A DNA stretch of 64,000 bases from positions 96,851 to 160,850 of the forward strand of contig JBDRZP010000002.1 of the NCBI GenBank assembly GCA_039804025.1, given 5' to 3'. The notes under the pieces are model-generated. The model made no database searches. It was not told the origin of the DNA and saw only the letters and a program-made list of their open reading frames with translations. Position 1 is the first letter of the stretch. Each line of letters begins with the position of its first letter. The stretch comes from a candidate division WOR-3 bacterium. GTDB lineage: Bacteria; Hydrothermota; Hydrothermia; Hydrothermales; JAJRUZ01. Both the position numbers and the translations under genes were made by a program. This document shows positions 4,322-63,635 of the stretch, one piece after another.

Positions 4322-4333
4322 GGGATTGAACCC
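4322..4333 (-). promoter_or_regulatory. Upstream motif GGGTTCAATCCC (member of the recurring AGGTTCAAATCC family), 23 nt upstream of the ATG of 1365..4298
   Basis: Seen directly; see the finding on the recurring motif. Confidence 0.5.
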
Positions 4334-4344
4334 TTCATTAACTT

Positions 4345-7206
4345 TCATTTAAATATAATAAACTTACCTAAAAAGTCCCTTGAATCCGAGCTAAGTTTTA
4401 TAAAGTAAGTGCCCTTGGATAGTTTATTTGATTTTGAAATAATTTCTGAAAGTGAAAGGGTATAAATTCCCTCTTTTTCATAAAATTTAAAGGTATTACC
4501 GAGTCTTCTACCTGTTTGGTTATAAATTGAAACATAATATTTACCTGAGTAAGGAACAAAAAGTTTTAATTCATTATTTTTTAAACCAAAAGTTGATATG
4601 ATATAAGGACTATTTGAATAAATAAAGGAAACAGGTTTTTCTCTAATACCTAATCCATTCCAGACATCTCTTGCAGTATCAGCATTTCCCTGAAAATCAA
4701 AAAGACTGTCACCTGCAACAACAGCAAATGCTAAAACAATACTATCACCTGAAGGGATTGTAAATGAACCCGCTGAAATAAGAGTAGACCAGTTATCCTT
4801 CTGGTAAGTATTAGGAATTCCAATTAAACCCTTAAGAAATTGAAATTTATAGGCATCCGTAATATAGCCATTAGGGTCAACATAAACGGAATTCTGTATA
4901 AATGTTATATTTCTGGGGTTCTGTGGTTCAAGGAGTACAATTCCAAGACATTTGTTATGAGTAGGGTTACCATTACTTAAATAAATAGCTTTCCTTCCAA
5001 GATCTCTTCCACCTGTATCAGAATTTGGACTTATATCAATATCAAGAAACATTCCTGAGTAAAAATCAATCAAATTATAATTCCAGTTATTTTTTATTGT
5101 GTATTTAAAAATTATAAAATCGTTATAGGGTGGAAGTGCCCAAGCAAAACTTTCCTGATGCACCTCAACACCCCTTGAATTTGGGTGTCCTGAATCATCA
5201 TACCTTGCACTTGCATCCTGATCTGAATATTTAGTGGCTCCTATCTGTAATAATCCATTTGGTAAATACATCCAATCTGCGTTATCAGCTGAATAGTCTG
5301 TATTTAATACATAGGAATTTGAATTACCAGCCCAGATTGAACCAATTTTAAGATAATTTTGACTATTTTTAGGGTAATGAAGCCCACTACCTTCATTCTG
5401 GTTACTATTTGTAAATCCTATTGCTCCAAGAGCTGTAACTGTTAGCAAAATTTCACCAACATCATGATTTCCGTAAAGAACTGGTATAAGTCCAACCTTC
5501 AAATTGAAATTTCTGAAATCATAGATAGAATCATTGGAATTTATTTTAAGAACCATGGGAGCCTGATACCCCAGTGGAGTTGAAGGTGAAGATGTCACAA
5601 CAAAGGGATCAATGTTTACCTTTGAACTTTCTGTAGGCATATCAGGATAAAGTGCAGTTGAGTCTAAAACACTAACATATGAGTCTGAGGTTTTTAAAAC
5701 AGCATTTACATTTGTGGCATTAATACCTATATTTCTCAATGTAATAAAAAGATTTACAGTTTCACCCGGGTCAAATATACCGTTTCCATTACCATTTGCA
5801 TCATCAACTCTATACCTTGAAAATAGAATAAAGGGTCTATTCGGTGAGGGAGTATTTTGTAAGGCTTTCCATATATTCAATCTTCCCCATCCATAATTGT
5901 TATTTGGATAAGGTGAACCCTGAGTAGGCTTGTCAGGATAATCAATTATTAAACTGTATATCTGTTTTGGTGTAAGCAGATTATTTTTTTGAACAATAAT
6001 AGCAACTGCACCGGCAACATGGGGGGTTGCCATTGAAGTTCCATTCCAGCCTCCCTGATAACCCCCACCTGGAACAGAGGAACGAATATTTACTCCAGGT
6101 GCGCTTATCTGTGGCTTTATAAAGTTCCAGTCATTTCTCAACCAGTAAGTTGTATCATTAAAGGGACTCTGATTAGGGGCCGGTCCTCTGCTTGAAAAAG
6201 AAGCAATATTATCATTTATATCAGTTGCACCAACTGCAAGAGTATGAGGATAACTTCCTGGTGCTCTTAAACCTGAAAAACCCTCATTTCCAGCGGCAAA
6301 AACAGGTAAAATGCCGAGAGTAAGCCAGGTATATACAACACCCCACCAGTGCAAATCTGTATAATTTGTTGTTCCCCAGGAATTTGACACAGCTCTGATA
6401 TCAACTCTTCCCTTCCAGGAAACCATTGAGTCCATACATGGGTCTATAGTTGCATAACTTCCAGAACCGCTAGAATTAAAAGCCTTGGCTGTAACAAATC
6501 TCGCACCAGGAGCAACTCCTATATCTTCTGTAAAAGGACCTACGCCATCTCCTCCGAGAATAGTTCCCATTGTATGGGTTCCGTGTCCGTTATCATCATA
6601 TGGATTAGGATTTCCATTTACACCATCAAACCAGTAACCTGTAACCCATTTACCTGAAAGAGCAGGATGAGATACCTCTACTCCTGTATCAATATGACCT
6701 ATTATAACATCCTGTCCATTATAACCAGCATACCAGCAGGAATCAGCTTTAACCTTTGAAACATTCCACTCAATAGCTGCTGGATAGGTATTATCCTTTT
6801 CAGTTTTTGTGTATATTATCTTTACCTCGCGATTTTCATCTATAAACCAGATATCATCATTTTTTTCAAGTGCATAAATAACTTTTTTAGTAGCCTCCAT
6901 ATGAAAACCATTATAAGCAAAATTCTTCATTAGAATTTCATATTCACCCTTAAAATTATCTTCAAGCCATTTTATTACTTTTGACTGAGAATTTTTGGCA
7001 TATTCCTTAAAAAACCGAACTTTTTCTTCTGTTGAAAGGGAAGTTATTTCATCATAAGGATAAATATCAGAAAGATGCACAACAACGTGAATTCTATCAT
7101 TCTTTGAGAGATAATTCAATTTTTCTCTTAGTGAGGGTGTTATTTTACCCTCAAAAGGCAGATAAGGGGGAGTTAACCCCCATATTATTAATAAAAATTT
7201 AAACAT
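4345..7206 (-). CDS. Subtilisin-like serine protease (peptidase S8, fervidolysin-like) with T9SS C-terminal sorting domain
   Basis: The catalytic triad motifs are present: HIDTGVEVSHPAL (Asp), HGTHTMGTILGG (His) and GTSMATPHVAGAVAI (Ser). It also has an N-terminal signal peptide plus propeptide and the C-terminal beta-sandwich GTYFIKLSSDSRDFLGKFIIFK. The RBS AAAGGAGGTATA precedes the ATG. Confidence 0.85.
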   Translation of the reverse strand: MFKFLLIIWGLTPPYLPFEGKITPSLREKLNYLSKNDRIHVVVHLSDIYPYDEITSLSTEEKVRFFKEYAKNSQSKVIKWLEDNFKGEYEILMKNFAYNGFHMEATKKVIYALEKNDDIWFIDENREVKIIYTKTEKDNTYPAAIEWNVSKVKADSCWYAGYNGQDVIIGHIDTGVEVSHPALSGKWVTGYWFDGVNGNPNPYDDNGHGTHTMGTILGGDGVGPFTEDIGVAPGARFVTAKAFNSSGSGSYATIDPCMDSMVSWKGRVDIRAVSNSWGTTNYTDLHWWGVVYTWLTLGILPVFAAGNEGFSGLRAPGSYPHTLAVGATDINDNIASFSSRGPAPNQSPFNDTTYWLRNDWNFIKPQISAPGVNIRSSVPGGGYQGGWNGTSMATPHVAGAVAIIVQKNNLLTPKQIYSLIIDYPDKPTQGSPYPNNNYGWGRLNIWKALQNTPSPNRPFILFSRYRVDDANGNGNGIFDPGETVNLFITLRNIGINATNVNAVLKTSDSYVSVLDSTALYPDMPTESSKVNIDPFVVTSSPSTPLGYQAPMVLKINSNDSIYDFRNFNLKVGLIPVLYGNHDVGEILLTVTALGAIGFTNSNQNEGSGLHYPKNSQNYLKIGSIWAGNSNSYVLNTDYSADNADWMYLPNGLLQIGATKYSDQDASARYDDSGHPNSRGVEVHQESFAWALPPYNDFIIFKYTIKNNWNYNLIDFYSGMFLDIDISPNSDTGGRDLGRKAIYLSNGNPTHNKCLGIVLLEPQNPRNITFIQNSVYVDPNGYITDAYKFQFLKGLIGIPNTYQKDNWSTLISAGSFTIPSGDSIVLAFAVVAGDSLFDFQGNADTARDVWNGLGIREKPVSFIYSNSPYIISTFGLKNNELKLFVPYSGKYYVSIYNQTGRRLGNTFKFYEKEGIYTLSLSEIISKSNKLSKGTYFIKLSSDSRDFLGKFIIFK

Positions 7207-7572
7207 TTATACCTCCTTTTTAACCTTTATTTAAACTGATTCTTTAATTAAATTTTCTATCTTTTTCCTTTAACCCCCCCTAAATAATATTTTTATTTTA
7301 AGTCAAATTTTCATAAATGCCAAAAGTTTGTAGAATACCATAACAATATTGAATTTTTCTGGCTCAATAAGATTAAAAGAGGTGCCCACTACAAAATGTT
7401 TTTTGTATATTCCTCTTTAAATTTTTCAACATAGGTATTTTCTCATAAAATTTTTTGCATTTCACCTCATAAAAATTTGTAAGCATAAGCAAAACCAAAC
7501 TTTGTTTTTAAAAGAGTTGCACAGAAAATATACCTTTACTTTACCCGTTTTTGCATAAAAAGTGAATTTTTG

Positions 7573-7590
7573 CGCACCCTAAAGGGTGCG
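7573..7590. other. GC-rich perfect palindrome CGCACCC-TAAA-GGGTGCG inside a 487-bp AT-rich intergenic region
   Basis: Seen directly. It has no adjacent U-tract on either strand. It is either an atypical terminator of the upstream minus-strand operon, whose stop is at 7694, or a protein-binding palindrome. Confidence 0.3.
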
Positions 7591-7693
7591 GCTACCATAA
7601 AATTATAGAATATGAGAATAAATGTCAAAAATTTTCAAAAAATTAATTTTTACCTTTTCCCATTATCTAATATCTCTTTAAAATTTTTCAAAG

Positions 7694-11807: not shown

Positions 11808-11857
11808 TCTCAGGTTGGGTCTGGAACCCGTAATTTTTACCTACGGGTCCTGAGACA
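11808..11857 (-). ncRNA. Structured leader / terminator hairpin in the ychF-rpsF intergenic region (candidate S6:S18 autoregulatory rpsF leader)
   Basis: The nested inverted repeats GTCTCAGG...CCTGAGAC (8 bp) and ACCCGTA...TACGGGT (7 bp) form a bulged hairpin that ends 24 nt upstream of the rpsF ATG. An RNA motif that binds the S6:S18 complex is established for rpsF leaders. Matching this hairpin to that motif is inference. Confidence 0.4.
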
Positions 11858-11871: not shown

Positions 11872-12885
11872 TTATACAGTGGAACTAAACTTAAATTCAA
11901 GAATATCTCTATCCTTAACAATATAATCCGGTCCGTGAATCTCTATTTTACCCTTTTCCTTAAGTTCTTTCCAGGAAGGAATTTCAAGAAAGTCAAAGGG
12001 GTTTGCAACTTCTACTTTTATAAATCCCTTCTGAATATCACTGTGGATTTTACCTGCTGCTTCATAAGCATTCTTTCCTTTTTTAAGTGGAAAGGCACTT
12101 GCAATTTCACCTTTTAATGTATAAAATCTTATAAAGCCAAGAAAATTAAAGGCATATTCCAGAATTTCAAAGGGGGAAGAAAAACCTTCTTTTTTTAATT
12201 CTTTTAAAATTTCTTCCCTTTCTTCTTCACTTAGATCTTTTAATTCTTCATATATTTTGAAAGGAGAAATAAAATATTTATCCTTAATATCAAGTTTATA
12301 ATCTTTCTTTTTATCATCAGAATTTATAACAAAAATTTTTTTCTTTGCCATTAAAAGGGGAAAGTCTTTTATATCTTCTGGTTCGAGCCCCTTTTCAATT
12401 TTTTCCTTTGCCTCAATTAATTTTTCCCTTAAATCCTTATTTAAATTTTTTTCTTTCAATTTTTTTTCTATTCTCTCCACATCTGAAATAGAAAGTTCCA
12501 GTAAAAGGATTTCTCTCTCTTTATCAGGATTTATTTCTTTTAAATAAGAAGAAACCCTTTCATCACTAAACCCCCTTAAAATAAATATTAATAAATCAGC
12601 TTCTCTTATATAAGAAAGAAACTCATTACCAAGACCTTCTCCTTTATGGGCACCCTCAATTATCCCTGCAATATCATAAACATTTACTTTAAAATTTCTT
12701 ATCTCCTTTGAGTTAGCCTTAAAAGCGAGTTTTTTTAAAAGTTCATCTTCAATCTCTGCTTTTCCTTCATTTTTACCAATGGTTGTGAATGGATAGATAT
12801 TTCTCTCTACTTCCTTTCCTGTTACAATATAAAAGAAGGTAGATTTCCCTGAATTTGGGAAACCCACCAACCCAATTTTTTCCAC
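11872..12885 (-). CDS. YchF/Obg-family GTPase-like protein (divergent ribosome-binding ATPase with TGS-like C-terminal domain)
   Basis: It has a G1 motif, GLVGFPNSGKSTFF, and a C-terminus (IRFYTLKGE...AGKIHSDIQKGFIKVEV) that resembles the YchF TGS domain. Confidence 0.6.
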   Translation of the reverse strand: MEKIGLVGFPNSGKSTFFYIVTGKEVERNIYPFTTIGKNEGKAEIEDELLKKLAFKANSKEIRNFKVNVYDIAGIIEGAHKGEGLGNEFLSYIREADLLIFILRGFSDERVSSYLKEINPDKEREILLLELSISDVERIEKKLKEKNLNKDLREKLIEAKEKIEKGLEPEDIKDFPLLMAKKKIFVINSDDKKKDYKLDIKDKYFISPFKIYEELKDLSEEEREEILKELKKEGFSSPFEILEYAFNFLGFIRFYTLKGEIASAFPLKKGKNAYEAAGKIHSDIQKGFIKVEVANPFDFLEIPSWKELKEKGKIEIHGPDYIVKDRDILEFKFSSTV

Positions 12886-13118: not shown

Positions 13119-13149
13119 CTTAAAAACTCCTTTTGATTAAAAAACTTTA

Positions 13150-13161
13150 GGATTTGAACCT
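13150..13161 (-). promoter_or_regulatory. Upstream motif AGGTTCAAATCC (read on the minus strand), 31 nt upstream of the cspA ATG
   Basis: Seen directly. On the + strand it contributes TTGAAC, followed by a 16-nt spacer and TATAAA. That makes it also a plausible -35 element for the divergent gene at 13202. Confidence 0.5.
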
Positions 13162-13201
13162 TTAAAATAAATCTCTATAAAATACCATATATTTTTTAAA
13201 A

Positions 13202-21312: not shown

Positions 21313-21325
21313 GGGATTAGAACCC
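21313..21325 (-). promoter_or_regulatory. Upstream motif GGGTTCTAATCCC, 19 nt upstream of the protease ATG at 21293
   Basis: Seen directly. It overlaps the 3' end of the oxidoreductase beta/gamma gene. Confidence 0.5.
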
Positions 21326-24834: not shown

Positions 24835-26443
24835 ATTTTTTATTAATAATAGGGTTTGAACCTTTTATAAATTTTTCCGGAATATGAATCATAAATTTTG
24901 TTCCTTTTCCTATTATACTTGAAACATCAATAGTAAATCCATGAGCTTCTATTACTTTTTTTACAAAAGAAAGTCCAAGTCCTGCTCCTTTTTCCTTTGT
25001 AGTAAAAAAGGGTTCAAAAATTTTATCTAAATATTTACTCTCTATTCCTTTACCAGTATCTTCAATTTCAAGAACAAAATCCTTATTCTTTTTAAAATTA
25101 ATAAAAATTTTACCCTCCTTTTCAATTGCTTCAATTGAATTCTTAATAAGATTTAAAAGGGTAAGTTCAAACTTTATCTCATCACAAAGTAATTTTATAT
25201 CATCAGGTATATCTATAAAAAACTCTATATTTTTACCTTTAACAAAAAAATGGGAAATTGAGACTATTTTTTGAACAATTTCATTTAAAAAGTTTAAAGT
25301 TATATTGAGTTTGAAAGGTTTTGATATTTCAAGTAGAGATATTAAAATATAGTTCATTATCTCTCCTTCTTCCTTTAATGCTTTTATAAGTTCTTTAATT
25401 TTTTCATCCTTAACCTTTAACTCTATTATTTCACTAACCCCCAAAACTCCTGAAATTAAATTCTTAAGTTCATGAATTAATCCTGCTGTTACTTTTCCTA
25501 TAAAAGCCATCTTCTCTTCCTGAGATCTTCTTTCAACAAGATATTTGATTTCCTCTTCAAGCGTTTCCTTTCTTTCCCTTATTTCCTTTATAAAATTTAT
25601 ATTTTCAATTGCAATAGATAAAGTATTTGAAATCATCTCAAAGGTTTTAATTTCTTCTTCATCAAAAATTCCCCTTTTCCTTTTTATATAAAGAACACCA
25701 TGAACAAAATCCTTTGTAGGGACAAGTATTGCAAGTTCCCTTTCTTTTAAAACTGTTTTCATTTTCTTAATTGCTTCGCCTGGAAAAGAAAACTCTATAT
25801 TTAATATCTCAAACTCCCTTTTACCCCTGAACATAACCGGAATTAAAACATTACCCTTAACCCTGTAAAAACACACAGATTCAATATCTTGAATATTTTC
25901 GTAAATATTTTTTATAACATATTCAAGAAGCCTATCTTCATCTAAAACCCTTGTTGAAAATAGAACAAGGTCATAACTCAATTCAAGCCTTTCTATTGAT
26001 TCTTTCCTCTTTTTATGTAAGTAAGAAGAAAAAAATAAAGGACCTATAAAGGAGGAAAGGAGTTTAAGGTCATTAAAAACCTCCTCTGAAAGATTATCCC
26101 TGAAATCAATCAATATAAAACCAAAAAGTTTTCCAAAGTGATAAAAAGGAAAATAAAAAAGGTAATTACACTCTGGACCTGTAATTTCATTAAAAGGAGT
26201 ACTCCCCACTGGATAAAGGGTAGCCTCCTTTAAACCGAAAAGAAAATCCTTAATTTTATTTTCATTCTCATACTTTCTGAATAAAGGCTTTATCTCTTCT
26301 TCTTTTTCACCAATAAATACATCAAAGGATAAATAACCTTTAAAAAAATTCCTTAAAAAAGCATCAAGGAATCTCCTAACCCTTTCAAGATCAGTCTCTG
26401 CTGAAATCTCTTTTAAAAAAGAAAGGAGAATTCCTGTATCCAT
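24824..26443 (-). CDS. Sensor histidine kinase (cytoplasmic, GAF-like N-terminal region)
   Basis: The H-box is GLIHELKNLISGV. The HATPase_c motifs are IEDTGKGIE and GLGLSFVKKVIEAHG. No obvious transmembrane segments were seen. Confidence 0.8.
   Translation of the reverse strand: MDTGILLSFLKEISAETDLERVRRFLDAFLRNFFKGYLSFDVFIGEKEEEIKPLFRKYENENKIKDFLFGLKEATLYPVGSTPFNEITGPECNYLFYFPFYHFGKLFGFILIDFRDNLSEEVFNDLKLLSSFIGPLFFSSYLHKKRKESIERLELSYDLVLFSTRVLDEDRLLEYVIKNIYENIQDIESVCFYRVKGNVLIPVMFRGKREFEILNIEFSFPGEAIKKMKTVLKERELAILVPTKDFVHGVLYIKRKRGIFDEEEIKTFEMISNTLSIAIENINFIKEIRERKETLEEEIKYLVERRSQEEKMAFIGKVTAGLIHELKNLISGVLGVSEIIELKVKDEKIKELIKALKEEGEIMNYILISLLEISKPFKLNITLNFLNEIVQKIVSISHFFVKGKNIEFFIDIPDDIKLLCDEIKFELTLLNLIKNSIEAIEKEGKIFINFKKNKDFVLEIEDTGKGIESKYLDKIFEPFFTTKEKGAGLGLSFVKKVIEAHGFTIDVSSIIGKGTKFMIHIPEKFIKGSNPIINKKYET
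24852..24863 (-). promoter_or_regulatory. Upstream motif AGGTTCAAACCC, 17 nt upstream of the response-regulator ATG and inside the 3' end of the kinase gene
   Basis: Seen directly. Confidence 0.45.
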
Positions 26444-31436: not shown

Positions 31437-31449
31437 GGGAATTTAACCC
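31437..31449 (-). promoter_or_regulatory. Upstream motif GGGTTAAATTCCC (variant of the recurring motif), 20 nt upstream of the ilvE ATG
   Basis: Seen directly. It heads a ~13-kb run of co-oriented, overlapping genes from ilvE to the protease at 18429. Confidence 0.4.
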
Positions 31450-45922: not shown

Positions 45923-45934
45923 AGGTTCAATTCC
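45923..45934 (+). promoter_or_regulatory. Upstream motif AGGTTCAATTCC, 23 nt upstream of the acpP ATG
   Basis: Seen directly. The opposite strand reads TTGAAC, a 15-nt spacer, then TATAAT. That is also a plausible promoter for the divergent tRNA-Leu. Confidence 0.5.
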
Positions 45935-45957
45935 TTTTGTTAAAAGGAGGTTATTTA

Positions 45958-49470: not shown

Positions 49471-49555
49471 TGTGGAAATTTTTTGAACATTTTAATTATC
49501 TGATTGTAATAGAGTCAGATTTTTATAAAATATAATGTGGAAATCTTTGTGGAAA
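49471..49555 (+). promoter_or_regulatory. Cluster of three DnaA-box-like 9-mers (ATGTGGAAA / TTGTGGAAA) upstream of dnaA
   Basis: TGTGGAAA occurs at 49471-78, 49536-43 and 49548-55, all in the same orientation. The consensus DnaA box is TTATCCACA, whose reverse complement is TGTGGATAA. The boxes here are the TTTTCCACA variant. Confidence 0.55.
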
Positions 49556-49574
49556 AATTTAAAAAAATTTAAAG

Positions 49575-49586
49575 AGGTTCAATTCC
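49575..49586 (+). promoter_or_regulatory. Upstream motif AGGTTCAATTCC, 22 nt upstream of the dnaA ATG
   Basis: Seen directly. Confidence 0.5.
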
Positions 49587-49608
49587 TCGAATAAAAAGGA
49601 GTAAATAA

Positions 49609-50934
49609 ATGAAAGGTAAAACCTTGTGGGAAAAAATGGTTGAAAAATTGAAAAAGGAGCTTTCTGAACAGGAATTCAGATTATTTGAAAAGGTAAATGG
49701 TGGAGATATTGAGGAAGATCACAAGCTTAAGATTTTCTGTCCTGATGAGTATACTAAGGACATAATAGAAAAGGCTTTTGGGGCGAAGTTAAAAAGAATA
49801 CTTTCTGACCTTGATTATCCAATGATTGAGTTAGTTTTTGAAATTAAAGGGGATGGAAAAGCTGAGGAAATCAAGAATATAAAAGTCAAAGATGAGGAAA
49901 TTAAAAGGGAGGGAATTCATTATGGATTAAATCCTGTTTATACTTTTGAAAATTTTGTTCCAGGGAAAAATAGTGAAATGGCTTACACTACTGCCAGGGC
50001 TGTAGCTCATGCACCGGGGCATGAGTACAACCCCCTATTTATTTATGGTGGGGTTGGTCTTGGAAAAACACATCTTCTTCATGCTATAGGTAATGATATT
50101 TTAAAAAGAAAAAAGAACTTCAAGATTTTATTACTAACAACTGAGGAACTCATATCTAAAATTGTTGATGCAATTCAAAAAAGAAAAATGAATGAATTTA
50201 GAAGCAAAATAAGAAGTTTTGATGTGCTTTTGATTGATGATATTCACTTTCTCTCTGGAGCTGAATTTTCTCAGGAAGCTTTATTCCATATATTTAACTC
50301 TTTTTATAATGAAAAAAAACAGGTGGTCCTCACTGCAGATAGAGCACCCTGGGAAATGGATAACATAGCAGAAAGACTTGTGGACAGATTCTCCTGGGGG
50401 CTTGTAACTGATATAAAGCCTCCTGAATATGAAACAAGGCTCGCTATTTTAAAACTTAAGGCTGAAGAGAGGGGGCTTGAAATTTCTGAGGATGTTTTAG
50501 AATTAATAGCAAGAAATGTAAAGAAGAATGTAAGACTTCTTGAGAGTTGTATAGCAAAATTATATGCAATACAGTCTCTTAAAAGAATAAAAATAACTCT
50601 TCCAATGGCTCAAAAATATCTAAGTGATATATTCTCTTCAGCAGCTATAAATGAGCCTGATGATGTAGTAAGAGTGGTTTCTGAATATTACAATATTCCA
50701 AAAACTGAAATAACTGGAAAGAAACAAAAAAAAGAGCTGGTTCAAGCAAGACAGGTAAGCATGTTTATAATGAAAAATGTTTTCAATATGACTGTAGTGG
50801 AAATTGCAAAATACTTTGATAAAGACCATACAACTGTTTTACATGCAATAAATAAAATTGAATCCCAGATTCAGAAAAACGAAAAATTAAAAGAAGATAT
50901 TATGGAAATTGAAAAAATGTTAAAAAGAGTGTAG
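49609..50934 (+). CDS. dnaA: Chromosomal replication initiator DnaA
   Basis: The AAA+ motifs are NPLFIYGGVGLGKTHLLHAIGN and LLIDDIHFL. The C-terminal DNA-binding domain is RQVSMFIMKNV...TVLHA. Confidence 0.95.
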   Translation: MKGKTLWEKMVEKLKKELSEQEFRLFEKVNGGDIEEDHKLKIFCPDEYTKDIIEKAFGAKLKRILSDLDYPMIELVFEIKGDGKAEEIKNIKVKDEEIKREGIHYGLNPVYTFENFVPGKNSEMAYTTARAVAHAPGHEYNPLFIYGGVGLGKTHLLHAIGNDILKRKKNFKILLLTTEELISKIVDAIQKRKMNEFRSKIRSFDVLLIDDIHFLSGAEFSQEALFHIFNSFYNEKKQVVLTADRAPWEMDNIAERLVDRFSWGLVTDIKPPEYETRLAILKLKAEERGLEISEDVLELIARNVKKNVRLLESCIAKLYAIQSLKRIKITLPMAQKYLSDIFSSAAINEPDDVVRVVSEYYNIPKTEITGKKQKKELVQARQVSMFIMKNVFNMTVVEIAKYFDKDHTTVLHAINKIESQIQKNEKLKEDIMEIEKMLKRV

Positions 50935-50940
50935 AAAAAA

Positions 50941-51058
50941 TGTGGAAAAGTATTTTATTAATTTTTCCAATATTTTTCCACATTGAATTTTTTTTAGAGA
51001 CACCTAATGATTTTAAATTTCCACAAACTTAATAATATAATTATAAATATATATTTAA
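50941..51058. other. Candidate oriC: three DnaA-box variants in both orientations plus an AT-rich unwinding tract, between dnaA and dnaN
   Basis: TGTGGAAAA lies at 50941-49 on the + strand. TTTCCACA lies at 50975-82 and 51018-25, which is the opposite orientation. The AT tract TAATAATATAATTATAAATATATATTTAAC spans 51029-51058. Confidence 0.55.
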
Positions 51059-51060
51059 CA

Positions 51061-51072
51061 AGGTTCAAATCC
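51061..51072 (+). promoter_or_regulatory. Upstream motif AGGTTCAAATCC, 19 nt upstream of the dnaN ATG
   Basis: Seen directly. Confidence 0.5.
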
Positions 51073-51091
51073 TTAAAATATAAAACTAATT

Positions 51092-52180
51092 ATGAGATTT
51101 AAAATTTTAAAAGAAGACTTTTTGAAAATGATTGAGAGTGTATATCATGCTATTCCATCAAAGGCAGCATTACCAATTCTTGAAAACATAAAGTTAGAGA
51201 CAAAGGGAAACGAAGTTAATCTTTTTTCCACAAATTTAAACTTTTCTTTAAAAGTTAAGGGAAAGGCGGATGTTGAGGAGGAAGGAGCAATTTGTATAAA
51301 AGGAAAAGAATTAAAGGAAATAGCTTCAAGAATTAAAAATGAAAAAATTTTAATAGAGAAAAGAGATGAAAGGGAACTTTTAATTCATACTTCCCTTGGT
51401 GAATACAGTTTTTTTATTCAGCCGCCTGAGGAGTTTCCCTCAATTGAGGAGATAGAGTTAAAGGAAGGGATTGAGGTCCCATCAAATTTAATATTAGAAG
51501 GTATTGAGAAAGTTTCCTTCTGTGTAGCAAAGAATGATTCAAGACAATTTTTAAACAATATTTTGCTGGACTTAAAGAAGAATAAGCTTTCTTTTGTTTC
51601 CTCTGATTCACATAAACTCGGTGTTTATGAGATAGAAATTGAAAATAAAGGTGTAGAAGGTGAATATTTACTGGATCCAAAGAGCTTTGATTTTCTTAAA
51701 GAATACAAAAATGAAACAATTAAAATATTTTTCTCTGAGACTAAAGTTCAGTTTAATTTCAGCAATGGATATGAAATAGTAAATCTTGTTGATGATAAAT
51801 TTCCTGATTACAGAGCTGTTGTCCCCTCAGATACTCCTTACAGATTAAAAATTGTAAGGGAAGATTTAATAGAAAGTTTAAGAAGACTATCAGTTTTTAC
51901 TACACCTCCTAATCATCCTGTACAATTTTCTCTTTCGCCAGAATCGTTAATTATAAGGGCAGTCTCAGGTGAGGTAGGAGAAGGATATGAAAAGTTAAAA
52001 GGTTTCTATGAAGGAGATAAAATTGAAATTGGTTTTAACTCTCATTATTTGCTTGATATTTTAAGACATATAGATGAAGATGTGGTAGAAATAGGTATTA
52101 CTGGAAGTGAAAGTGCAAGTTTAATAAAGGGGGAAGGCGCTAATCATTACTTTTATCTTTTAATGCCCATTAGGATTTAG
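51092..52180 (+). CDS. dnaN: DNA polymerase III beta subunit (sliding clamp)
   Basis: It has the three-domain clamp architecture. The N-terminus MRFKILKEDFLKMIESV...LPILENIKLE is typical of DnaN. Confidence 0.9.
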   Translation: MRFKILKEDFLKMIESVYHAIPSKAALPILENIKLETKGNEVNLFSTNLNFSLKVKGKADVEEEGAICIKGKELKEIASRIKNEKILIEKRDERELLIHTSLGEYSFFIQPPEEFPSIEEIELKEGIEVPSNLILEGIEKVSFCVAKNDSRQFLNNILLDLKKNKLSFVSSDSHKLGVYEIEIENKGVEGEYLLDPKSFDFLKEYKNETIKIFFSETKVQFNFSNGYEIVNLVDDKFPDYRAVVPSDTPYRLKIVREDLIESLRRLSVFTTPPNHPVQFSLSPESLIIRAVSGEVGEGYEKLKGFYEGDKIEIGFNSHYLLDILRHIDEDVVEIGITGSESASLIKGEGANHYFYLLMPIRI

Positions 52181-53002
52181 TATAGATTCTAAAATTCTAA
52201 AAACTTGTTTAGTTTCAAGTACATCGTGTACTCTTATTATGTTTACTTTTTTTAAAAATAAATAGGCAGCAACTGCAAGGGTACCTATTAATCTATCCTC
52301 AGGTTTTTCTAATTCAAGTATTTTCCCTATAAAGGACTTTCTTGAATGACCTACTAATATAGGAAACCCGAACTCTTTAAATTCATCTATATTTTTCAAA
52401 ATTAAAAGGTTATCAATTACCCTTTTTCCAAAACCTATACCTGGGTCTATAACTATTTTTTCTTTTTTAATCCCATTTTTTAAAGCAAAGTCTACTTTCT
52501 CTTTAAGTTCCTCTTTAATTTCCTTTATGGTATCCTCATAGAAGGGGTTTTCCTGCATATTTTTTGGTGTTCCCCTTATATGCATTATTATTATACCTGC
52601 ATCAAATTTTTTAACAATCTTTATCATTTCCGGGTCATCCCTTAATCCTGATATGTCATTAACTATATTTGCTCCTCTTTTTAAAGCTTCTTCTGCCACC
52701 TTTGACTTTCTTGTATCTATTGAAATTGGAATATCTATTTTTTTTCTTAATCTTTCAATAACTGGGATAACTCTTTTTAATTCTTCTTCAAGAGGCACAG
52801 GCTCCGAAAAAGGTCTTGAAGACTCACCTCCTATATCAATTATATCTGCACCTTGCTCAAAAATTTCTTTACCCCTTTCGAGAGCTTTATCTAAATCAAA
52901 ATACTTTCCCCCATCATAAAAGGAATCAGGGGTTACATTCAAAATACCCATTATTTTTGGTTCTGAAAGATCTATTTCTCCTTCTTTAAATGAAAAATTC
53001 AA
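52160..53002 (-). CDS. folP: Dihydropteroate synthase
   Basis: GILNVTPDSFYDGG...IIDIGGESSRP is the pterin-binding signature. Confidence 0.9.
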   Translation of the reverse strand: MNFSFKEGEIDLSEPKIMGILNVTPDSFYDGGKYFDLDKALERGKEIFEQGADIIDIGGESSRPFSEPVPLEEELKRVIPVIERLRKKIDIPISIDTRKSKVAEEALKRGANIVNDISGLRDDPEMIKIVKKFDAGIIIMHIRGTPKNMQENPFYEDTIKEIKEELKEKVDFALKNGIKKEKIVIDPGIGFGKRVIDNLLILKNIDEFKEFGFPILVGHSRKSFIGKILELEKPEDRLIGTLAVAAYLFLKKVNIIRVHDVLETKQVFRILESILNPNGH

Positions 53003-53015
53003 GAAAAATAAAAAA

Positions 53016-53088
<73 letters not shown>

Positions 53089-55018: not shown

Positions 55019-57569
55019 TTAAGAATTTGGTTCCTTTTCCTTTTTCGCTCTCTACATATATTTTTGCTCCGTGATCCTCAATAATTCTGTGGACTATTGC
55101 AAGCCCCAAACCGGATCCTCCCTTTTTTGTTGTATAAAAGGGTTCAAATATATGGGCAAGTTCAGAGGGTTCAATTCCCACACCCGTATCTTCTATACTT
55201 ATAAATATTATCCCTCCTGTTTTCTCACCTGCCTGTAAGGTAAGTTTCCCTCCTTCTGGCATTGCTTCTAATCCGTTTCTTATTAAATTTTCCAAAACTT
55301 CCTTCATCTGGTCTTCATCAATATAGGCTATAAGCTCATATTCTGGTAAACTGAGATAAAAATCAACTTTTTTCTCTCTGAATTCCTGGCTGTAAAAAAT
55401 TACTATTTCTTCAATCATCTCTTTTATATTTACCCTTTTTCTTTTAAGAGGAGGTCTCCTTGCAAAGGAAAGGAGATTTTTAATAAGTCTATCAAGTCTT
55501 GAAATTTCCTTTAATATAACTCCAAGATGTTTTTTCTTTGGATCATCATCCTGTAAACTGGAATATATATACTCAATACCAACTGATATACTTGCAAGTG
55601 GATTTTTAATCTCATGTGCCATGTGAGCTGCAATCCTTCCAATTGCTGAGAGTCTTTCAGTTCTTCTTAACTGTTCTTCAAGTGCGACCACTTCTTTTAT
55701 ATCTTCAATCATAAGTATAAAACCCTTAATTCTTTCTTTTTCATAAATGAAAGTTGAAGAAAGTGAGAGAGGAATTGTTTCTTCACCTCTTTTTATTTCT
55801 ACATTTTTCTTTATAAGGGGGATTCTCTCCTCAATACTTCTTCTAAAAATACAATTTGGGTCCCCAGGTTCGTGTTCCTCAAATATCCTGCAAAGAGAGC
55901 TTTCCTTTATTTCCTCCTCTTTTAACTTTAAAGTATAAATTGCAGCAAAATTCACCCTTTTAACATAAAGGTCTCTATCTGCATAAATTATACCAACTGG
56001 AATATTTTTAAGGATTATATCTATAAATTCTTCTTCTCCTTTTAAAATAGATAATTCCTTTTTGTATTCATCTATAGCCTTTCTATAAGCCAAAAAACTC
56101 GAAATCAATTTTGATATTCTTTCAAAAATTTCAATATCTTCCTTTGAAAAACCATCAATCTTAGGTGAAGAAATTACCATCACTCCTATTGCTTCTTTAT
56201 CAACAATTAAGGGCAAAACAACCTCTGATTTAACAAGGGGTGAGGCTGGAATATACCTTATATCTTTTGAAACATCAGGTGCGTAAATAATCTCCTTTCT
56301 ATGAACAGCATGCCCTGAAAGTCCCTCAACACCTATTTTTAGTCTTCTCTTTGAGAGCTCCTCAAAATCTTCATAGCCAATTCCAACTTTCATTCTTAAA
56401 TAATCCTCTTCTTCCCTTAAAAGAAAACCAACATATAAAATGTCTAATTCATCTTTTATTATATAACCTACATTGTATAAGAGATCTTCAATATTTTGAT
56501 GATGGGGCACTATATCTATTATTCGCATCAATACCCTGTTAAGTTTATTTAAATTTTCAATTTTTTTCTTTAAATTTAAAATATCTAATATAAGGGATAG
56601 AAATACCGGATTTATATAACTTTTTTCTCCTTTGAAAGAAACAAGGTATTCAGCTTGAGAGGTTTTTAATTCAAAGATATTAAAATCTTTTTTTTCTTTA
56701 AATTCTCTCCTATCCTCAAGGGACTTGAATTTTTCTTCCTCTTTTATAAAAACTTCTGTTTCATAAACATTAAATCTTTCACTAAGGTAACTTTTGAAAA
56801 ATTTTAAGGATTCATTAAAGTTTAAGGAAATAATTTTTTCAAAAAATTCTGATGAAAATAAGAGTTTTTCTTCATACCACTCCTCTGATAGATTAACGAT
56901 TGAATTTAAAAATTCTTTTTCCTCTTCATTTAAAAATTCTTTATCTACAAGAAGTATTGTTTTACTTTTTGAAAAGGAAAATAATTTTTTTTCTTCATAA
57001 ATAATACTTTCTCCTTGAGTTTCAAAATAAGGAATTATCTCCTTTATTTTCTCCTCATCTAATTTTTCTAAAGTTCCAATTTTTATATTAAAATTTTTAG
57101 TTTTAAAATAGATTCCATTTAAATTTAAAAGATAAGATAGTTCTTTTAAAGAATTTTCAATATTCTCCCTTATTTGAGCTTCCAAGGACCTATGGAAATT
57201 GAAGAGAAAGTTCAATTTAAATATTTCATTTTTAGCATCTTCAAAAAGTCTGTAATTCTTTATAAAAATAGATGTTGTATAAAGTATTTTTTTTATTTCT
57301 TCTATTTTTAAATCATCTTTTAAGGAAAAAGAAATTATTGTGTATATTTTCTCATTGTCATGAAGAGGAATATAAATATTTCCATTTTTTATAACTTCCT
57401 CTTTATCAAACAATAATTTTTTCAATTCTTTTACTTCAAGAAAACCTTTTATTTTTTCTGGTTCAATAAGATTTATTTCAGAATTAATTTTTAATTCGAG
57501 AAAATTTTTTATGTTTTTAATTATTTCGGCTATACCTTTTGATTCATTTAATAAATCAATTAATTCCAT
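55002..57569 (-). CDS. Multi-sensor (GAF / PAS-like) histidine kinase, cytoplasmic
   Basis: The H-box is AHMAHEIKNPLASI. HATPase_c carries IEDTGVGIE and GSGLGLAIVHRIIEDHG. Confidence 0.8.
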   Translation of the reverse strand: MELIDLLNESKGIAEIIKNIKNFLELKINSEINLIEPEKIKGFLEVKELKKLLFDKEEVIKNGNIYIPLHDNEKIYTIISFSLKDDLKIEEIKKILYTTSIFIKNYRLFEDAKNEIFKLNFLFNFHRSLEAQIRENIENSLKELSYLLNLNGIYFKTKNFNIKIGTLEKLDEEKIKEIIPYFETQGESIIYEEKKLFSFSKSKTILLVDKEFLNEEEKEFLNSIVNLSEEWYEEKLLFSSEFFEKIISLNFNESLKFFKSYLSERFNVYETEVFIKEEEKFKSLEDRREFKEKKDFNIFELKTSQAEYLVSFKGEKSYINPVFLSLILDILNLKKKIENLNKLNRVLMRIIDIVPHHQNIEDLLYNVGYIIKDELDILYVGFLLREEEDYLRMKVGIGYEDFEELSKRRLKIGVEGLSGHAVHRKEIIYAPDVSKDIRYIPASPLVKSEVVLPLIVDKEAIGVMVISSPKIDGFSKEDIEIFERISKLISSFLAYRKAIDEYKKELSILKGEEEFIDIILKNIPVGIIYADRDLYVKRVNFAAIYTLKLKEEEIKESSLCRIFEEHEPGDPNCIFRRSIEERIPLIKKNVEIKRGEETIPLSLSSTFIYEKERIKGFILMIEDIKEVVALEEQLRRTERLSAIGRIAAHMAHEIKNPLASISVGIEYIYSSLQDDDPKKKHLGVILKEISRLDRLIKNLLSFARRPPLKRKRVNIKEMIEEIVIFYSQEFREKKVDFYLSLPEYELIAYIDEDQMKEVLENLIRNGLEAMPEGGKLTLQAGEKTGGIIFISIEDTGVGIEPSELAHIFEPFYTTKKGGSGLGLAIVHRIIEDHGAKIYVESEKGKGTKFLIELPK

Positions 57570-58565: not shown

Positions 58566-58577
58566 AGGTTCTATTCC
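58566..58577 (+). promoter_or_regulatory. Upstream motif AGGTTCTATTCC (variant), 18 nt upstream of the ATG at 58596
   Basis: Seen directly. Confidence 0.4.
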
Positions 58578-58595
58578 TTTGAAAAAATCCCTGAT

Positions 58596-60179: not shown

Positions 60180-63100
60180 ATGAGCGATTTTGTTCATTTA
60201 CATCTTCATACGGAGTATTCCCTTCTTGACGGGATAATTCCTATTGATAAGCTTCTTGATAAGTGTGTTGAAGAAAGAATGCCTGCCTGTGCTATAACTG
60301 ACCATGGTGCTTTATTTGGTGTTATAGAGTTTTATAAAAAAGCAAAAGAAAGGGGTATAAAACCAATAATAGGGGCTGAGCTTTATATAACAAGATCAAG
60401 AAAGGAAAAGGTGGTTTCCCCAGGTTATGATCCTTATAATCACATAACCTTAATTGCCAAAAATTTAAAGGGATATAAGAATTTAATGAAACTATCTTCA
60501 ATAGGATATCTTGAAGGATTTTATTATAAGCCAAGAATTGATAGGGAGGTTCTTAAAAATTATTCTGAAGGACTTTTCTTTCTGACAGGTTGTATTAAAG
60601 GAGAGATACCACAGCTAATATTACAGGGTAAGATAAAAGAAGCAGAGGATCTTTTAAAAATATACATGGAAATATTCGGAAAAGAAAATTGTATTATTGA
60701 GCTTATGGATCTAAATATGGAGGAAAACATAATTGTAAATAAAGTCCTTTATGAATTTGCCAAAAAGTATGATCTTGTGTATGTTGCCACAAATGATGTT
60801 CATTATCTTGATAAAGAGGATTATGAATTTCATGAAGCAATTCTTGCTCTTCAAACAGGTAAGACATTGAAGGATAAGGAAAGATTCAGATTTAAAACAA
60901 AGGAAGTTTATTTTAAAAGTGAAAAGGAAATGAAGCAAATTTTCAGTTATGATGAAAGGGCAGTTTTAAATACAAGAAAAGTAGAAGAAATGATTGATAT
61001 TGATTTGAAGCTCAACGAAAATTTTTATTTGCCAAAAATTGAAATACCACATCAGTTTGATAGTAATTTTGAATATTTAAAATATTTAAGTTATAAAGGG
61101 CTTGAAGAAATTTTTAAGGGTGATATAAAAAAGAAGTATATTGAAAGGTTAGAAAAGGAGCTTTCAATAATACAAAAATTAAACTTTGAAGGTTATTTCC
61201 TGATTATAAAGGACATAGTTGATTTCGCAAAAAGGGAAGGAATACCTGTTGGTCCTGGCAGGGGTTCAGCAGTTTCTTCACTTGTTCTTTATTCACTTGG
61301 TGTTACGAGGATTGACCCCTTGAAGTATGATCTTCTTTTTGAAAGATTTTTAAACCCTGAAAGAATATCTCCGCCTGATGTGGATATAGATTTTGGTGAT
61401 GAAAGGAGAGATGAAATTTTATCCTATATAAGAAAAAAATACGGAGAAAAAAATGTATCCCAGATTATAACTTTTGGGAGAATGAAGGCAAGGCAGGCAA
61501 TAAGGGATATGGGTAGAGTATTGGGTTATGAATATTCCTTTGTTGATAAACTTGCAAGAGAATGTATTGAGGGAACTTTAGAAGAATCATATTCGGAAAA
61601 TCCGGTTTTTAAGAGACTTGTTGAGGAGAATGAAGATTACAGGAAGATATACGAGTATGCAAAAAAAGCAGAGGGACTTGCAAGACATGCCTCAGTTCAT
61701 GCAGCAGGAGTTGTTGTTGCTCCATCTGAAATAACTGATTATGTGCCTCTTTATATGGATTCAAAAGGAACCATCTGTTCTCAGTATGAGATGAATTCTC
61801 TTGAAGCTGTTGGACTTTTAAAAATAGATATATTAGGACTAAGAACTTTAACTGTAATTGAAGATACATGTAAATTGTTAAAAAATAAGGGAATAGAGGT
61901 AGATCCTTACAATTTGCCTCTTGATGATAAAAAAACTTTTGAAATTCTATCAAGGGGTAAAACTCAGGGAGTTTTTCAGCTGGAATCAAGGGGGATGAGG
62001 GAACTTCTTAAAAGATTAAAACCGGATGAATTTAGGGATCTAATTGCAATTCTTTCCCTTTATAGACCCGGACCAATTGAGGCAGGAGCAACTGAAGAAT
62101 ATGTGAGGAGGAAAAAGGGACTTGTTCCTCTTAGTTATCCCCATGAAAAACTTGAGAAAATTTTAAAGGAGACCTTTGGTCTCATTGTATATCAGGAGCA
62201 AGTTATGCTTATAGCCCATGAGCTTGCAGGTTTTTCCTTTGCTAAAGCTGATATTTTGAGAAAGGCTATGGGTAAGAAAAAGGAAGAATTAATGAGTGAA
62301 AGTATAATGAGGGAATTTGTAAGTGGTATGGTAGAAAGAGGTATTCCTGAAGATATGGCAAAGGATATGGTTTTAAAGATACATTCCTTTGCAAAGTATG
62401 CTTTTAATAAGTCTCATTCAACAGGTTATGCACTTTTATCTTATATAACAGCATACCTCAAGGCAAATTATAAAACAGAATTTTATGCCTCTGTTTTAAA
62501 CAGTGAAATAAATAAAATTGAGAAAGTTTCTTACTTTGTTCAAACTGCAAAGAGGGATGGTATAGAAATTTTACCTCCCTGTATTTTAAATTCAGATAAA
62601 TTCTTTAAAGTTGAGGGGGAAAATAAAATAAGATATGGGCTTTTAGGGATTAAAAATGTAGGAGTAAATGCCTGTGATCATATTATAGAATTGAGACGAC
62701 AGAAACCATTTACCTCTTTTGAGGATTTTGTTAGAAGGGCTTCGTCCAAAAAAGTTACCAAGAAAGTTATAGAAGCATTGATTAAAGCAGGGGCTTTTGA
62801 TATTTTTGATCCAGATAGGGAAAAATTGATGAATATTTTTGAAAATAAACTTGTTAAAAAATCAGTTCCCTCACTTTTTACAAATAAAGTGGAGGAAATT
62901 CAGGAAGAAAAAGATGCTTTAAGAGTTATGGAGTGGGAAAAGGAGGTTTTAAATATGTATTTTAAAAACCACCCTCTTGAACCCTATTCAGAATTTGTAG
63001 AGATTCTTTCAACCCACTCATCAATTGATATACAGGAAGAGGAGGAGATAGAACTTAGAAATGTAAGAATGTGTGGGGTTTTGAGCAAAGTGGAATCAAA

Positions 63101-63551
63101 AATTAATAATGATGGGAAAAGAAATTATTATATTCTGCATCTTGAGGATTTTGAAGGTTCTTTTCAAGTTGTTATATTTGATGAATTGAAGAATAAAATT
63201 GAAAAATACCTTGATAAACTTGCTCCTTTTTATGTTGAAGGAGATGTTTTTCAGGGTTCTTCAAAAATATTTGCAAGAGAAATTATGCCTTTAAAGGAAG
63301 CGATTTCTAAAAAATTGAAGGGAATACTTATAAAATTAAATTTAAAAGAACTTGATGAAGAAAAAATTAAAAGTTTAAAGGAAATAGTAAATAAATTTAA
63401 GGGAAAATTTGATCTTTATTTATCCCTTGATACAGGAGAAAAAAGGAGAATTTATAAATCAATGGTTTTTAAAGTTTCTTTTAAGGAAGAGTTTTTTGAT
63501 GAAATTAATGAACTATTTGGGGAAAATAGGATTGAAAGTCTTGTTGAATGA
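60180..63551 (+). CDS. dnaE: DNA polymerase III alpha subunit
   Basis: The PHP domain is FVHLHLHTEYSLLDG. The polymerase core is GPGRGSAVSSLV. The OB domain follows. The protein is 1123 aa. Confidence 0.95.
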   Translation: MSDFVHLHLHTEYSLLDGIIPIDKLLDKCVEERMPACAITDHGALFGVIEFYKKAKERGIKPIIGAELYITRSRKEKVVSPGYDPYNHITLIAKNLKGYKNLMKLSSIGYLEGFYYKPRIDREVLKNYSEGLFFLTGCIKGEIPQLILQGKIKEAEDLLKIYMEIFGKENCIIELMDLNMEENIIVNKVLYEFAKKYDLVYVATNDVHYLDKEDYEFHEAILALQTGKTLKDKERFRFKTKEVYFKSEKEMKQIFSYDERAVLNTRKVEEMIDIDLKLNENFYLPKIEIPHQFDSNFEYLKYLSYKGLEEIFKGDIKKKYIERLEKELSIIQKLNFEGYFLIIKDIVDFAKREGIPVGPGRGSAVSSLVLYSLGVTRIDPLKYDLLFERFLNPERISPPDVDIDFGDERRDEILSYIRKKYGEKNVSQIITFGRMKARQAIRDMGRVLGYEYSFVDKLARECIEGTLEESYSENPVFKRLVEENEDYRKIYEYAKKAEGLARHASVHAAGVVVAPSEITDYVPLYMDSKGTICSQYEMNSLEAVGLLKIDILGLRTLTVIEDTCKLLKNKGIEVDPYNLPLDDKKTFEILSRGKTQGVFQLESRGMRELLKRLKPDEFRDLIAILSLYRPGPIEAGATEEYVRRKKGLVPLSYPHEKLEKILKETFGLIVYQEQVMLIAHELAGFSFAKADILRKAMGKKKEELMSESIMREFVSGMVERGIPEDMAKDMVLKIHSFAKYAFNKSHSTGYALLSYITAYLKANYKTEFYASVLNSEINKIEKVSYFVQTAKRDGIEILPPCILNSDKFFKVEGENKIRYGLLGIKNVGVNACDHIIELRRQKPFTSFEDFVRRASSKKVTKKVIEALIKAGAFDIFDPDREKLMNIFENKLVKKSVPSLFTNKVEEIQEEKDALRVMEWEKEVLNMYFKNHPLEPYSEFVEILSTHSSIDIQEEEEIELRNVRMCGVLSKVESKINNDGKRNYYILHLEDFEGSFQVVIFDELKNKIEKYLDKLAPFYVEGDVFQGSSKIFAREIMPLKEAISKKLKGILIKLNLKELDEEKIKSLKEIVNKFKGKFDLYLSLDTGEKRRIYKSMVFKVSFKEEFFDEINELFGENRIESLVE

Positions 63552-63623
63552 ATTTTTTAAGTTAACAGTTTTTTAACCCAAATTTAATGATTTTTTAATA
63601 TTCCCCTTTTATCTTTATAAATA

Positions 63624-63635
63624 AGGTTCAAATCC
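63624..63635 (+). promoter_or_regulatory. Upstream motif AGGTTCAAATCC, 21 nt upstream of the pstS-like ATG
   Basis: Seen directly. Confidence 0.5.

Follow-up and report, generated by a model that had tools for sequence, protein, structure and literature searches.

A tRNA T-arm-like mini-hairpin upstream of unrelated genes in a Hydrothermales (WOR-3) lineage

Why would the sequence of a tRNA T-arm recur, in one orientation and within a narrow range of distances from the start codon, before genes as unrelated as acpP, dnaA and cspA? This question is raised by a stretch of 64,000 nucleotides from a candidate division WOR-3 bacterium (contig JBDRZP010000002.1 of assembly GCA_039804025.1, positions 96,851 to 160,850), hereafter the window, in which a first-pass annotation made from the letters had pointed out the 11-mer GGTTCAAATCC, or a variant of it, upstream of ten genes. 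We observed that the recurring element is a mini-hairpin, in which N-GG is paired with CC-N' (3-5 bp) around the 7-nt loop UUCNANN, and that it precedes ~18% of the genes, i.e. about one in five. In the reading that we prefer, tentatively and at a little less than an even chance, it would be a lineage-specific cis-acting element of mRNA leaders, a T-arm mimic docking the ribosome or a T-arm-binding protein and thereby affecting translation initiation, possibly together with 5' protection.

The motif and its T-loop signature

The window contains nine matches to the 11-mer at no more than one mismatch, where 2.0 would be expected; a count of nine was reached in 0/100 shuffles. A position weight matrix (PWM) built from the ten sites returned 11 sites scoring at least 19, everything else scoring 14 or less. 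The enrichment was also found with no prior: GGTTCAA is the top enriched 7-mer in the region -50 to -9 of 59 genes, where it is present before 8 genes vs 0.45 expected (p = 1.7e-8). All ten sites of the first-pass annotation were recovered upstream of start codons, within 1 nt of where it had placed them, and the two that it called variants, at ilvE and at the PBP-like gene, are true members. As it had claimed, the motif always lies on the coding strand (10/10 sites), and at all ten the start codon begins 17-31 nt past the CC of the hairpin. A Shine-Dalgarno sequence (SD) is present at 6/10 sites, in every case 3' of the motif (6/6, again as claimed) and 10-18 nt past the CC; the four SD-less sites are those of dnaN, the response regulator, ilvE and the PBP-like gene.

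Nine of the ten downstream open reading frames (ORFs) were confirmed by Pfam (ACP, DnaN, NMT1/PBP-like, PBP_like_2 for the PstS-like protein, class IV aminotransferase, response regulator, S8 peptidase, CSD, and CARDB with Por_Secre_tail) and DnaA by its homologues. Since the functions of these genes have no common theme, we agree with the earlier opinion that a pathway-specific operator is unlikely. An intrinsic terminator or a repeat of the repetitive extragenic palindromic type was ruled out by the 3-bp stem, the A-rich 3' flank and the invariable position 5' of genes.

Two further matches in the window are not members. The eleventh PWM site, 55168-55178 (+), is antisense within a GAF histidine-kinase ORF and is conserved in relatives as the code for G-I-E-P; because of this coding role, and because its flanking pair is not maintained in orthologues, we consider it a coincidence. 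The 11-mer match at 19129 (-) falls within an S8 protease ORF.

The hairpin was then analysed in a lineage sample of ~300 kb of Hydrothermales-like DNA, which holds 51 motif instances in 20 gene families. The pair that flanks GG and CC is A-U in 28 instances, G-C in 16, G-U in 2 and U-A in 1, and is unpaired in 4. Its covariation exceeds that of 500/500 shuffles and is maximal at register 0, the proposed one, and RNAalifold independently gave the identical 3-bp helix. With one count per family we obtained A-U 12, G-C 5, G-U 1 and A-C 0 (hypergeometric p ~7e-4, by hand arithmetic). Switches of the pair are found within single families: before acpP it is A-U in the window and in its closest relative L001, G-C in L002 and L007 and U-A in L005, and in family c it is G-C in L144 and A-U in L149. 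The next pair outward is formed in about half of the instances.

Three loop bases, U1, U2 and A5, never vary across the 51 instances and 20 families, nor do the two G-C pairs, and C3 (90%), A4 (87%) and U7 (77%) are strongly preferred (family-weighted values). U1, U2, C3, A4, A5 and U7 correspond to tRNA U54, U55, C56, R57, A58 and U60, and the G-C closing pair to G53-C61. The sequence signature of a T-loop (7-nt loop, G-C closure, U1, U2, A5) is thus present, and the earlier statement that the motif copies the tRNA T-stem and loop holds precisely at the conserved positions, U54, U55 and A58, with C56 preferred. This invariance is not merely an artefact of the search pattern, since orthologues located by synteny, without the pattern, keep U1, U2, A5 and the G-C pairs, and since near-misses breaking GG, UU, A or CC are not enriched before genes (7-18% lie upstream of ORFs vs 62-78% of the true matches). 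The TruB/Pus4 consensus G-U-U-C-N-A-N-N-C in a short stem-loop (GUUCNANNC) is matched fully by 43/51 instances; the exceptions are the ilvE family (A, U or G at C56) and one L007 locus, x379 (G). We also noted, as a single case, a possible variant with an 8-nt loop, AGG-TTCAATTA-CC, at 11902-11914 (+) of L165, after a TATAAT box and before an ORF.

Placement of the hairpin and its conservation in relatives

The motif could act in duplex DNA or in RNA, and the first-pass annotation had considered both. A DNA-level element would be a core-promoter or initial-transcribed element, a -35-like box, or the site of a transcription or nucleoid factor. Its position upstream of genes with AT-rich flanks is compatible with this, and a promoter scan indeed called TTGAAC-18-TAAAAT towards gene 13202 (13154-13183, +) and TTGAAC-17-TATAAT antisense at dnaN (51040-51068, -). 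These two calls are probably incidental; promoter-like calls amount to 25 vs 20.9 +/- 5.8 in shuffles, so that there is no excess. In a family-weighted alignment anchored on the hairpin, all columns between -40 and -3 stayed at or below 0.5 bit. Reading the sense TTCAAA as a -35 box was rejected because transcription would start past the start codon, and reading the antisense TTGAAC as one was rejected because no matching -10 signal accompanies it across families.

The spacing to the real promoters was then considered, with transcription start sites (TSSs) predicted from promoters kept across species. The GG of the hairpin follows the conserved -10 box at anything from 9 to 35 nt: 9 nt before the PBP-like gene (TTGATA-17-TAAAAT), 11-12 nt before acpP (TTGCTT-18-TATAAT), 18 nt before cspA (TTGCAT-17/18-(TG)n-TATTTT), 19-20 nt in families b and c (TATAAT) and 14-35 nt before dnaN (TATAAT). 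The fixed spacing to -35/-10 boxes and TSS that a sigma-70 core-promoter element should have is therefore not found. The hup gene does carry the TTGACA-17-TATAAT promoter described in the first-pass annotation, which was right that the motif is not this organism's sigma-70 promoter.

On the 3' side, by contrast, an A-rich linker leads to the SD, visible as a G-rich peak at +23..+27. In genes with an SD the distance from CC to GGAG is most often 11-12 nt, other genes clustering at 15-20 nt; in the SD-less genes of the window the start codon follows at 17-21 nt, and at up to 24 nt in two dnaN orthologues. The spacing to the translation start is the one constant, irrespective of whether the hairpin is preceded by a promoter, a long leader, another ORF or a tRNA. 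The orientation is sense in 20/20 gene families and tracks the gene even in L007, whose PBP-like gene points the other way with respect to dnaA. This inverted gene bears the motif in its own orientation, for which reason a replichore-oriented motif of the Chi/KOPS type was rejected.

Several copies, that at the stop codon before the S8 protease included, lie where there is no room for a promoter. The one within the histidine-kinase ORF is placed 17-19 nt before the response-regulator start and encodes G-S-N/I-P; its GGT and TCA codons are unchanged in six orthologues, the adjacent codons varying synonymously. In four genomes the ilvE copy lies within the 3' end of a recX-like ORF. In L007 one copy (183-199, +) lies 12 nt past the 3' end of a tRNA-Pro gene (94-170) and another (4330-4342, -) 8 nt past that of a tRNA-Leu gene (4351-4434, -); these mRNAs must be co-transcribed with the tRNA.

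The fixed spacing to the start codon, the variable spacing to the -10 box and the copies inside ORFs and after tRNAs argue for an RNA leader element and against a promoter or nucleoid-factor site. Similarly, the restriction to the sense strand, the compensatory changes, the occurrence of G-U without A-C, the ORF and tRNA positions and the lack of promoter geometry argue for an RNA structure and against a site in duplex DNA. A DNA-level element is consequently highly improbable, and two suggestions of the first-pass annotation are not borne out: the core-promoter or TSS-proximal element, by the 9-35 nt spacing, the silence from -40 to -3 and the copies in ORFs and after tRNAs, and the site of a global nucleoid factor, by the strict sense orientation and the compensatory changes.

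The search in related genomes that had been proposed as a check was carried out. The DnaA of the window is 93% identical to that of L001, a WOR-3 metagenome-assembled genome (MAG) and the one relative found by a DnaA scan of genome contigs; in six further clusters DnaA is 69-74% identical, two of these being Candidatus Hydrothermales MAGs at NCBI. The dnaA region was compared from six relatives and the kinase region from five. At orthologous positions, all six dnaA loci have the motif in front of both acpP and dnaN, and all six kinase loci have it in front of both ilvE and the response regulator. Of the five relatives that show the PBP-like gene, four (all but L006) have it there too; the S8 protease is preceded by it wherever the gene occurs (four loci), and so is cspA. 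Orthologous sites persist across 61-93% protein identity, with diverged flanks. The motif is thus present in every Hydrothermales-like locus sampled (DnaA 69-93% identical), and is found in none of the leaders examined in L008 and L009, two more distant WOR-3 members (44% DnaA identity). The hairpin and its linker behave as an insertion/deletion module of ~30 nt.

A scan of 241 million metagenome records for the pattern followed by an SD yielded 39 loci, most of them genuine tRNA genes with an SD behind them. In 24/39, ARAGORN placed a tRNA gene beneath the match. A further ten are on DNA unlike that of Hydrothermales, with one match each: for nine no tRNA was called (one of these being a tRNA cut at the contig edge), and in the tenth the tRNAs called miss the match. 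The true relatives are five low-GC loci (L133, L144, L149, L159 and L165), with the motif before genes and with further copies in L144, L149 and L165; the genes include a peptidyl-prolyl isomerase, a 3-hydroxyacyl-CoA dehydrogenase and a Kelch protein of the type IX secretion system (T9SS). A scan of viral contigs gave only chance single matches among those listed.

These results bear on the trivial explanation, namely that the copies arose by chance, by the decay of tRNA genes or as a tiny mobile repeat. The 11-mer does equal a common tRNA T-arm, most metagenome matches of motif plus SD are real tRNAs, and insertion and deletion as a module is how a small repeat might behave. However, ARAGORN called only a tRNA-Leu and a tRNA-Met in the window, neither at a motif site, and cmscan against Rfam 15 gave 19 matches at E up to 10, none of which, those to the tRNA model (RF00005) included, overlaps a motif site; at the gathering thresholds the sites likewise had no match. 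The similarity between copies does not extend past 13 nt, and the enrichment statistics, together with the conservation of orthologous sites at 61-93% protein identity in diverged flanks, leave this explanation practically no credence.

The ten sites and their surroundings

On the minus strand, the first hairpin, AGGG-UUCAAUC-CCCU (4320..4334, 4 bp), lies 23 nt before the ATG (4298) of the CARDB/Por_Secre_tail protein, with an SD starting 11 nt past the CC. The cspA hairpin, AGG-UUCAAAU-CCU (13149..13161), stands 31 nt before the ATG (13118) and is kept in L173. At 21313..21325 the intercistronic GGG-UUCUAAU-CCC, 20 nt before an S8 protease ATG (21293), starts on the base that completes the stop codon of the POR gene upstream, and is kept in L170, L171 and L172. 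The response-regulator hairpin, AGG-UUCAAAC-CCU (24851..24863), is placed 17 nt before an SD-less ATG (24834), within the 3' end of the histidine-kinase ORF, where it codes for G-S-N-P in the window. The ilvE hairpin, GGG-UUAAAUU-CCC (31437..31449), precedes by 21 nt an ATG (31416) that also lacks an SD; loops of its orthologues read UUUAAUU, UUGAAUU or UUGGAAU, so that loop position 3 is free in this family.

On the plus strand, AGG-UUCAAUU-CCU (45923..45935) is found 23 nt before the acpP ATG (45958). As it follows the conserved TTGCTT-18-TATAAT by 11-12 nt, it lies at or near the predicted 5' end of the mRNA. The dnaA hairpin, GAGG-UUCAAUU-CCUC (49574..49588, 4 bp), 22 nt before the ATG (49609), sits between conserved DnaA boxes and the SD. 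The dnaN hairpin, AAGG-UUCAAAU-CCUU (51060..51074, 4 bp), 19 nt before an SD-less ATG (51092), is kept in six of six genomes, 14-35 nt from the conserved TATAAT. The NMT1/PBP-like gene has AGG-UUCUAUU-CCU (58566..58578) 18 nt before its ATG (58596), again with no SD, and the PstS-like gene has AGG-UUCAAAU-CCU (63624..63636) 21 nt before its ATG (63657), with an SD starting 11 nt past the CC.

Around dnaA, boxes of the form TGTGGAAAW were found at 49471, 49536, 49548 and 50941 (+) and at 50974, 51017 and 51224 (-), the cluster lying within 49471-51232. The minimum of the cumulative GC skew is located ~10 kb to the left (36-40 kb), where gene orientation also flips.

A different tRNA-mRNA arrangement concerns folP (52160-53088, -). 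Its start, a TTG at 53002, lies only 13 nt past the 3' end of tRNA-Met (53016), with no SD and no room for a promoter, and the N-terminal extension FSFKEG..KIMGILNVTPD is kept in five genomes. The CC of the tRNA-Met T-arm is 21-24 nt before the folP start, which is the spacing of the leader motif. This arrangement suggests tRNA-mRNA co-transcription, and may hint at the origin of the motif.

Three other leaders or groups of leaders drew our attention. In that of hup (-), the TTGACA-17-TATAAT promoter (35133-35105) is followed by a GC-rich GAACCCGGGGGACGGAA (35097-35081) that is kept in L170, L173 and L174. The rpsF-ssb-rpsR-rplI leader (11808-11855, -) has a long-range helix, TCTCAGG...CCTGAGA, around a second hairpin; it looks like a ribosomal-protein leader and matched no Rfam family at E up to 10. 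Many first genes are SD-less with a TATAAT-like box 6-10 nt before the ATG (39912, -; 58505, -; 13202, +; and throughout L008 and L009), which suggests that leaderless or near-leaderless mRNAs are frequent in WOR-3.

Possible roles and comparison with known systems

The stability of the hairpin conditions what it could do. By nearest-neighbour energies, which disregard any tertiary stabilisation of the T-loop, the 15-nt consensus has a folding energy of just -1.5 kcal/mol at 37 C; for the 51 instances the median rises from -2.4 kcal/mol at that temperature to -0.2 at 55 C and +1.7 at 70 C. The habitats of the relatives are hot springs and hydrothermal fluids (record titles; PMC12285271). A 3-bp stem is too weak alone at 70 C, and would therefore probably need a partner. 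In the reading that we favour, this unstable stem would be kept in shape by something whose usual target is a T-arm, be it the ribosome or a protein that binds or modifies T-arms; the complex would promote or tune translation initiation at the next ORF, and the 5' side of the message would be protected as a secondary effect. T-arm enzymes are plausible partners, with the ribosome as the alternative. GUUCNANNC is required by TruB and Pus4 alike, and a stem-loop presenting it on a 3-bp stem is modified by E. coli TruB at 0.3x the rate for tRNA (PMC13492117); in addition, E. coli mRNAs contain TruB-dependent pseudouridine at GUUC (PMC13062092; see also PMC13236023). The first-pass annotation had offered, among its options, a T-loop-like RNA hairpin perhaps recognised by tRNA-processing or -modifying enzymes; it is this option that we retain, and the flanking pair covaries.

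A more specific proposal, speculative and unlikely, is that the T-arm mimic ~18 nt before the AUG recruits or positions the ribosome, with or without an SD, either directly or after writing by TruB or by the m5U54 or m1A58 methyltransferase. To the 790 loop, 3' tail and 5' end of 16S rRNA, the motif would have only short or imperfect complementarity.

Several observations weigh against the reading of the motif as a T-arm mimic acting on initiation. The dnaA module (49549-49608) is present only in the window and in L001 and missing in four relatives (cf. L002, L005 and L006), and the PBP-like module is cleanly missing in L006 (~18960-18994), where TTGATA-17-TAAAAT-6-ATG remains and the gene looks leaderless. 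The module is thus dispensable. The variation at C56 in the ilvE family and in one other would weaken recognition of the TruB type. The short distance to the AUG could partly mirror leaders that are generally short. Further, the function proposed is read from position, the growth temperature of the source organism is deduced from its relatives, the energies leave out tertiary contacts, and the sample covers ~300 kb of the lineage rather than whole genomes.

The same facts allow a different role, that of a 5'-end protector or processing boundary, which would block 5' attack by nucleases of the RNase J/E type or mark cut sites, and so set the half-life of the message and not its initiation. The hairpin is indeed a few nt from the predicted TSS in acpP (11-12 nt past TATAAT), in the PBP-like gene (9 nt past the -10 box) and in family g of L165; copies are found just past tRNA 3' ends, where processing leaves a 5' monophosphate, and also at cistron junctions. 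On the other hand, the stem has just 3 bp and a dG of ~+1.7 kcal/mol at 70 C, the hairpins of cspA, families b and c, dnaN and dnaA are ~10-40 nt from the predicted TSS, and the distance that is constrained is that to the SD or AUG, not to the 5' end. We consider a protector unlikely. On predicted starts, the earlier suggestion that the motif lies at or very near the 5' end of the mRNA fits acpP and the PBP-like gene, but not dnaA, dnaN, the response regulator and ilvE, where the motif is leader-internal or intercistronic.

The tRNA likeness might also be incidental, the hairpin serving as operator for a dedicated RNA-binding protein or small RNA that co-regulates a dispersed set of genes after transcription, in the fashion of CsrA and its GGA hairpins. 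A conserved mini-hairpin next to the ribosome-binding region of ~18% of genes of unrelated function, gained and lost gene by gene, is what such a regulator would use. However, the conserved positions are exactly those that define a T-loop, which would be an odd coincidence, no candidate regulator was found and the genes regulated would have no common theme; we regard this explanation as improbable.

Finally, the hairpin could serve to unmask the SD. In some leaders the CCU arm can pair with the SD instead: the 3' arm, (A)UCCU, would be an anti-SD for AGGA, and formation of the T-hairpin, toggled by temperature or by a factor, would free the SD. The minimum free energy folds of the acpP, PstS-like, T9SS and L007 x896 leaders do pair the CC(U) arm with the SD, over 7 bp in acpP (UCCUUUU with AAAAGGA), and the 11-12 nt mode from CC to GGAG would suit such a switch. 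Nevertheless, the pairing is not conserved: the extended complementarity is not kept among acpP orthologues, any CCU pairs with an SD in silico, and the dnaN, response-regulator, ilvE and PBP-like families hold the motif with no SD to mask. A switch of this kind is extremely doubtful.

If the ribosome-recruiting T-arm mimic were true, it would be the first genome-wide, positionally fixed code of tRNA-mimic leaders in a bacterium, and its alternation with initiation that is leaderless or relies on the SD alone, as for the PBP-like gene of L006 and dnaA of the relatives, would mean that initiation modes are exchanged in evolution. A signal common to about one-fifth of the leaders of unrelated genes and kept across species would be a new kind of leader element beside the SD, and natural T-arm mimicry at genome scale. 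It provides a substrate set for asking whether bacterial tRNA-modifying enzymes have functional mRNA targets, a question that outlasts the recent pseudouridine maps, and an entry point to gene expression in WOR-3, a phylum nearly without experimental data. Moreover, N-GG-UUNNANN-CC-N' marks true start codons and could aid the annotation of these genomes. If the motif were merely a weak stabiliser hairpin, it would remain a useful lineage marker of modest general interest.

Literature searches for a T-loop leader motif in bacteria returned no description of one, and we therefore compared the motif with its nearest known relatives. Promoters of Bacteroidota, of the Fibrobacteres-Chlorobi-Bacteroidetes (FCB) group, have a -33 TTTG and a -7 TAnnTTTG. 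They resemble the present case as a recurrent, lineage-restricted motif before many unrelated genes, in a lineage related to the FCB group, but this lineage has promoters of the TTGACA/TATAAT type (hup, acpP, cspA), to which the motif has no fixed geometry. The thrS operator mimics the anticodon arm of tRNA-Thr and serves the autoregulation of a single gene. Operators of this type and the motif alike are leader hairpins beside the ribosome-binding site, imitating a segment of a tRNA through which a protein that binds tRNA can influence translation. In the motif, however, the segment imitated is the universal T-arm, and the copies are spread among unrelated genes.

The bacterial 5'-stabiliser hairpins of the ompA, aprE and ermC leaders are stable, gene-specific and must be 5'-terminal. 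The motif shares with them a small leader hairpin upstream of the SD, 5'-proximal in acpP and in the PBP-like gene. It differs from them in having a 3-bp consensus, in being common to unrelated genes and in often lying well within the transcript: three families have it close to the predicted TSS, others 10-40 nt away or between cistrons.

Closer still are the mRNA mimics of the T-arm that are modified in eukaryotes by TRUB1/Pus4 and by TRMT6/61A (m1A), and the GUUC sites of E. coli TruB, with which the motif shares GUUCNANNC in a short stem-loop. For these, a 2-3 bp stem is enough in vitro (PMC13492117, citing Safra 2017; PMC13062092; PMC13236023). Such sites in mRNAs are scattered, mostly in coding or 3' regions, of low stoichiometry and not conserved in position, whereas the leader motif, a candidate for modification, has a fixed distance to the start, precedes ~18% of genes and is conserved among species. 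With the tRNA T-arm itself it shares the 7-nt loop, the G-C closure, U54, U55, A58 and the preference for C56, and its consensus GGUUCAAAUCC is identical to the T-arms of the lineage's own tRNA-Pro and tRNA-Asp; but the leader stem has 3 bp (sometimes 4-5) where the tRNA has 5, position 57 can be a pyrimidine, position 56 can vary, and the hairpin stands in mRNA leaders with no acceptor, D or anticodon arm. Among these nearest known systems, none is a positionally fixed element common to unrelated genes, as the leader motif of this lineage is.

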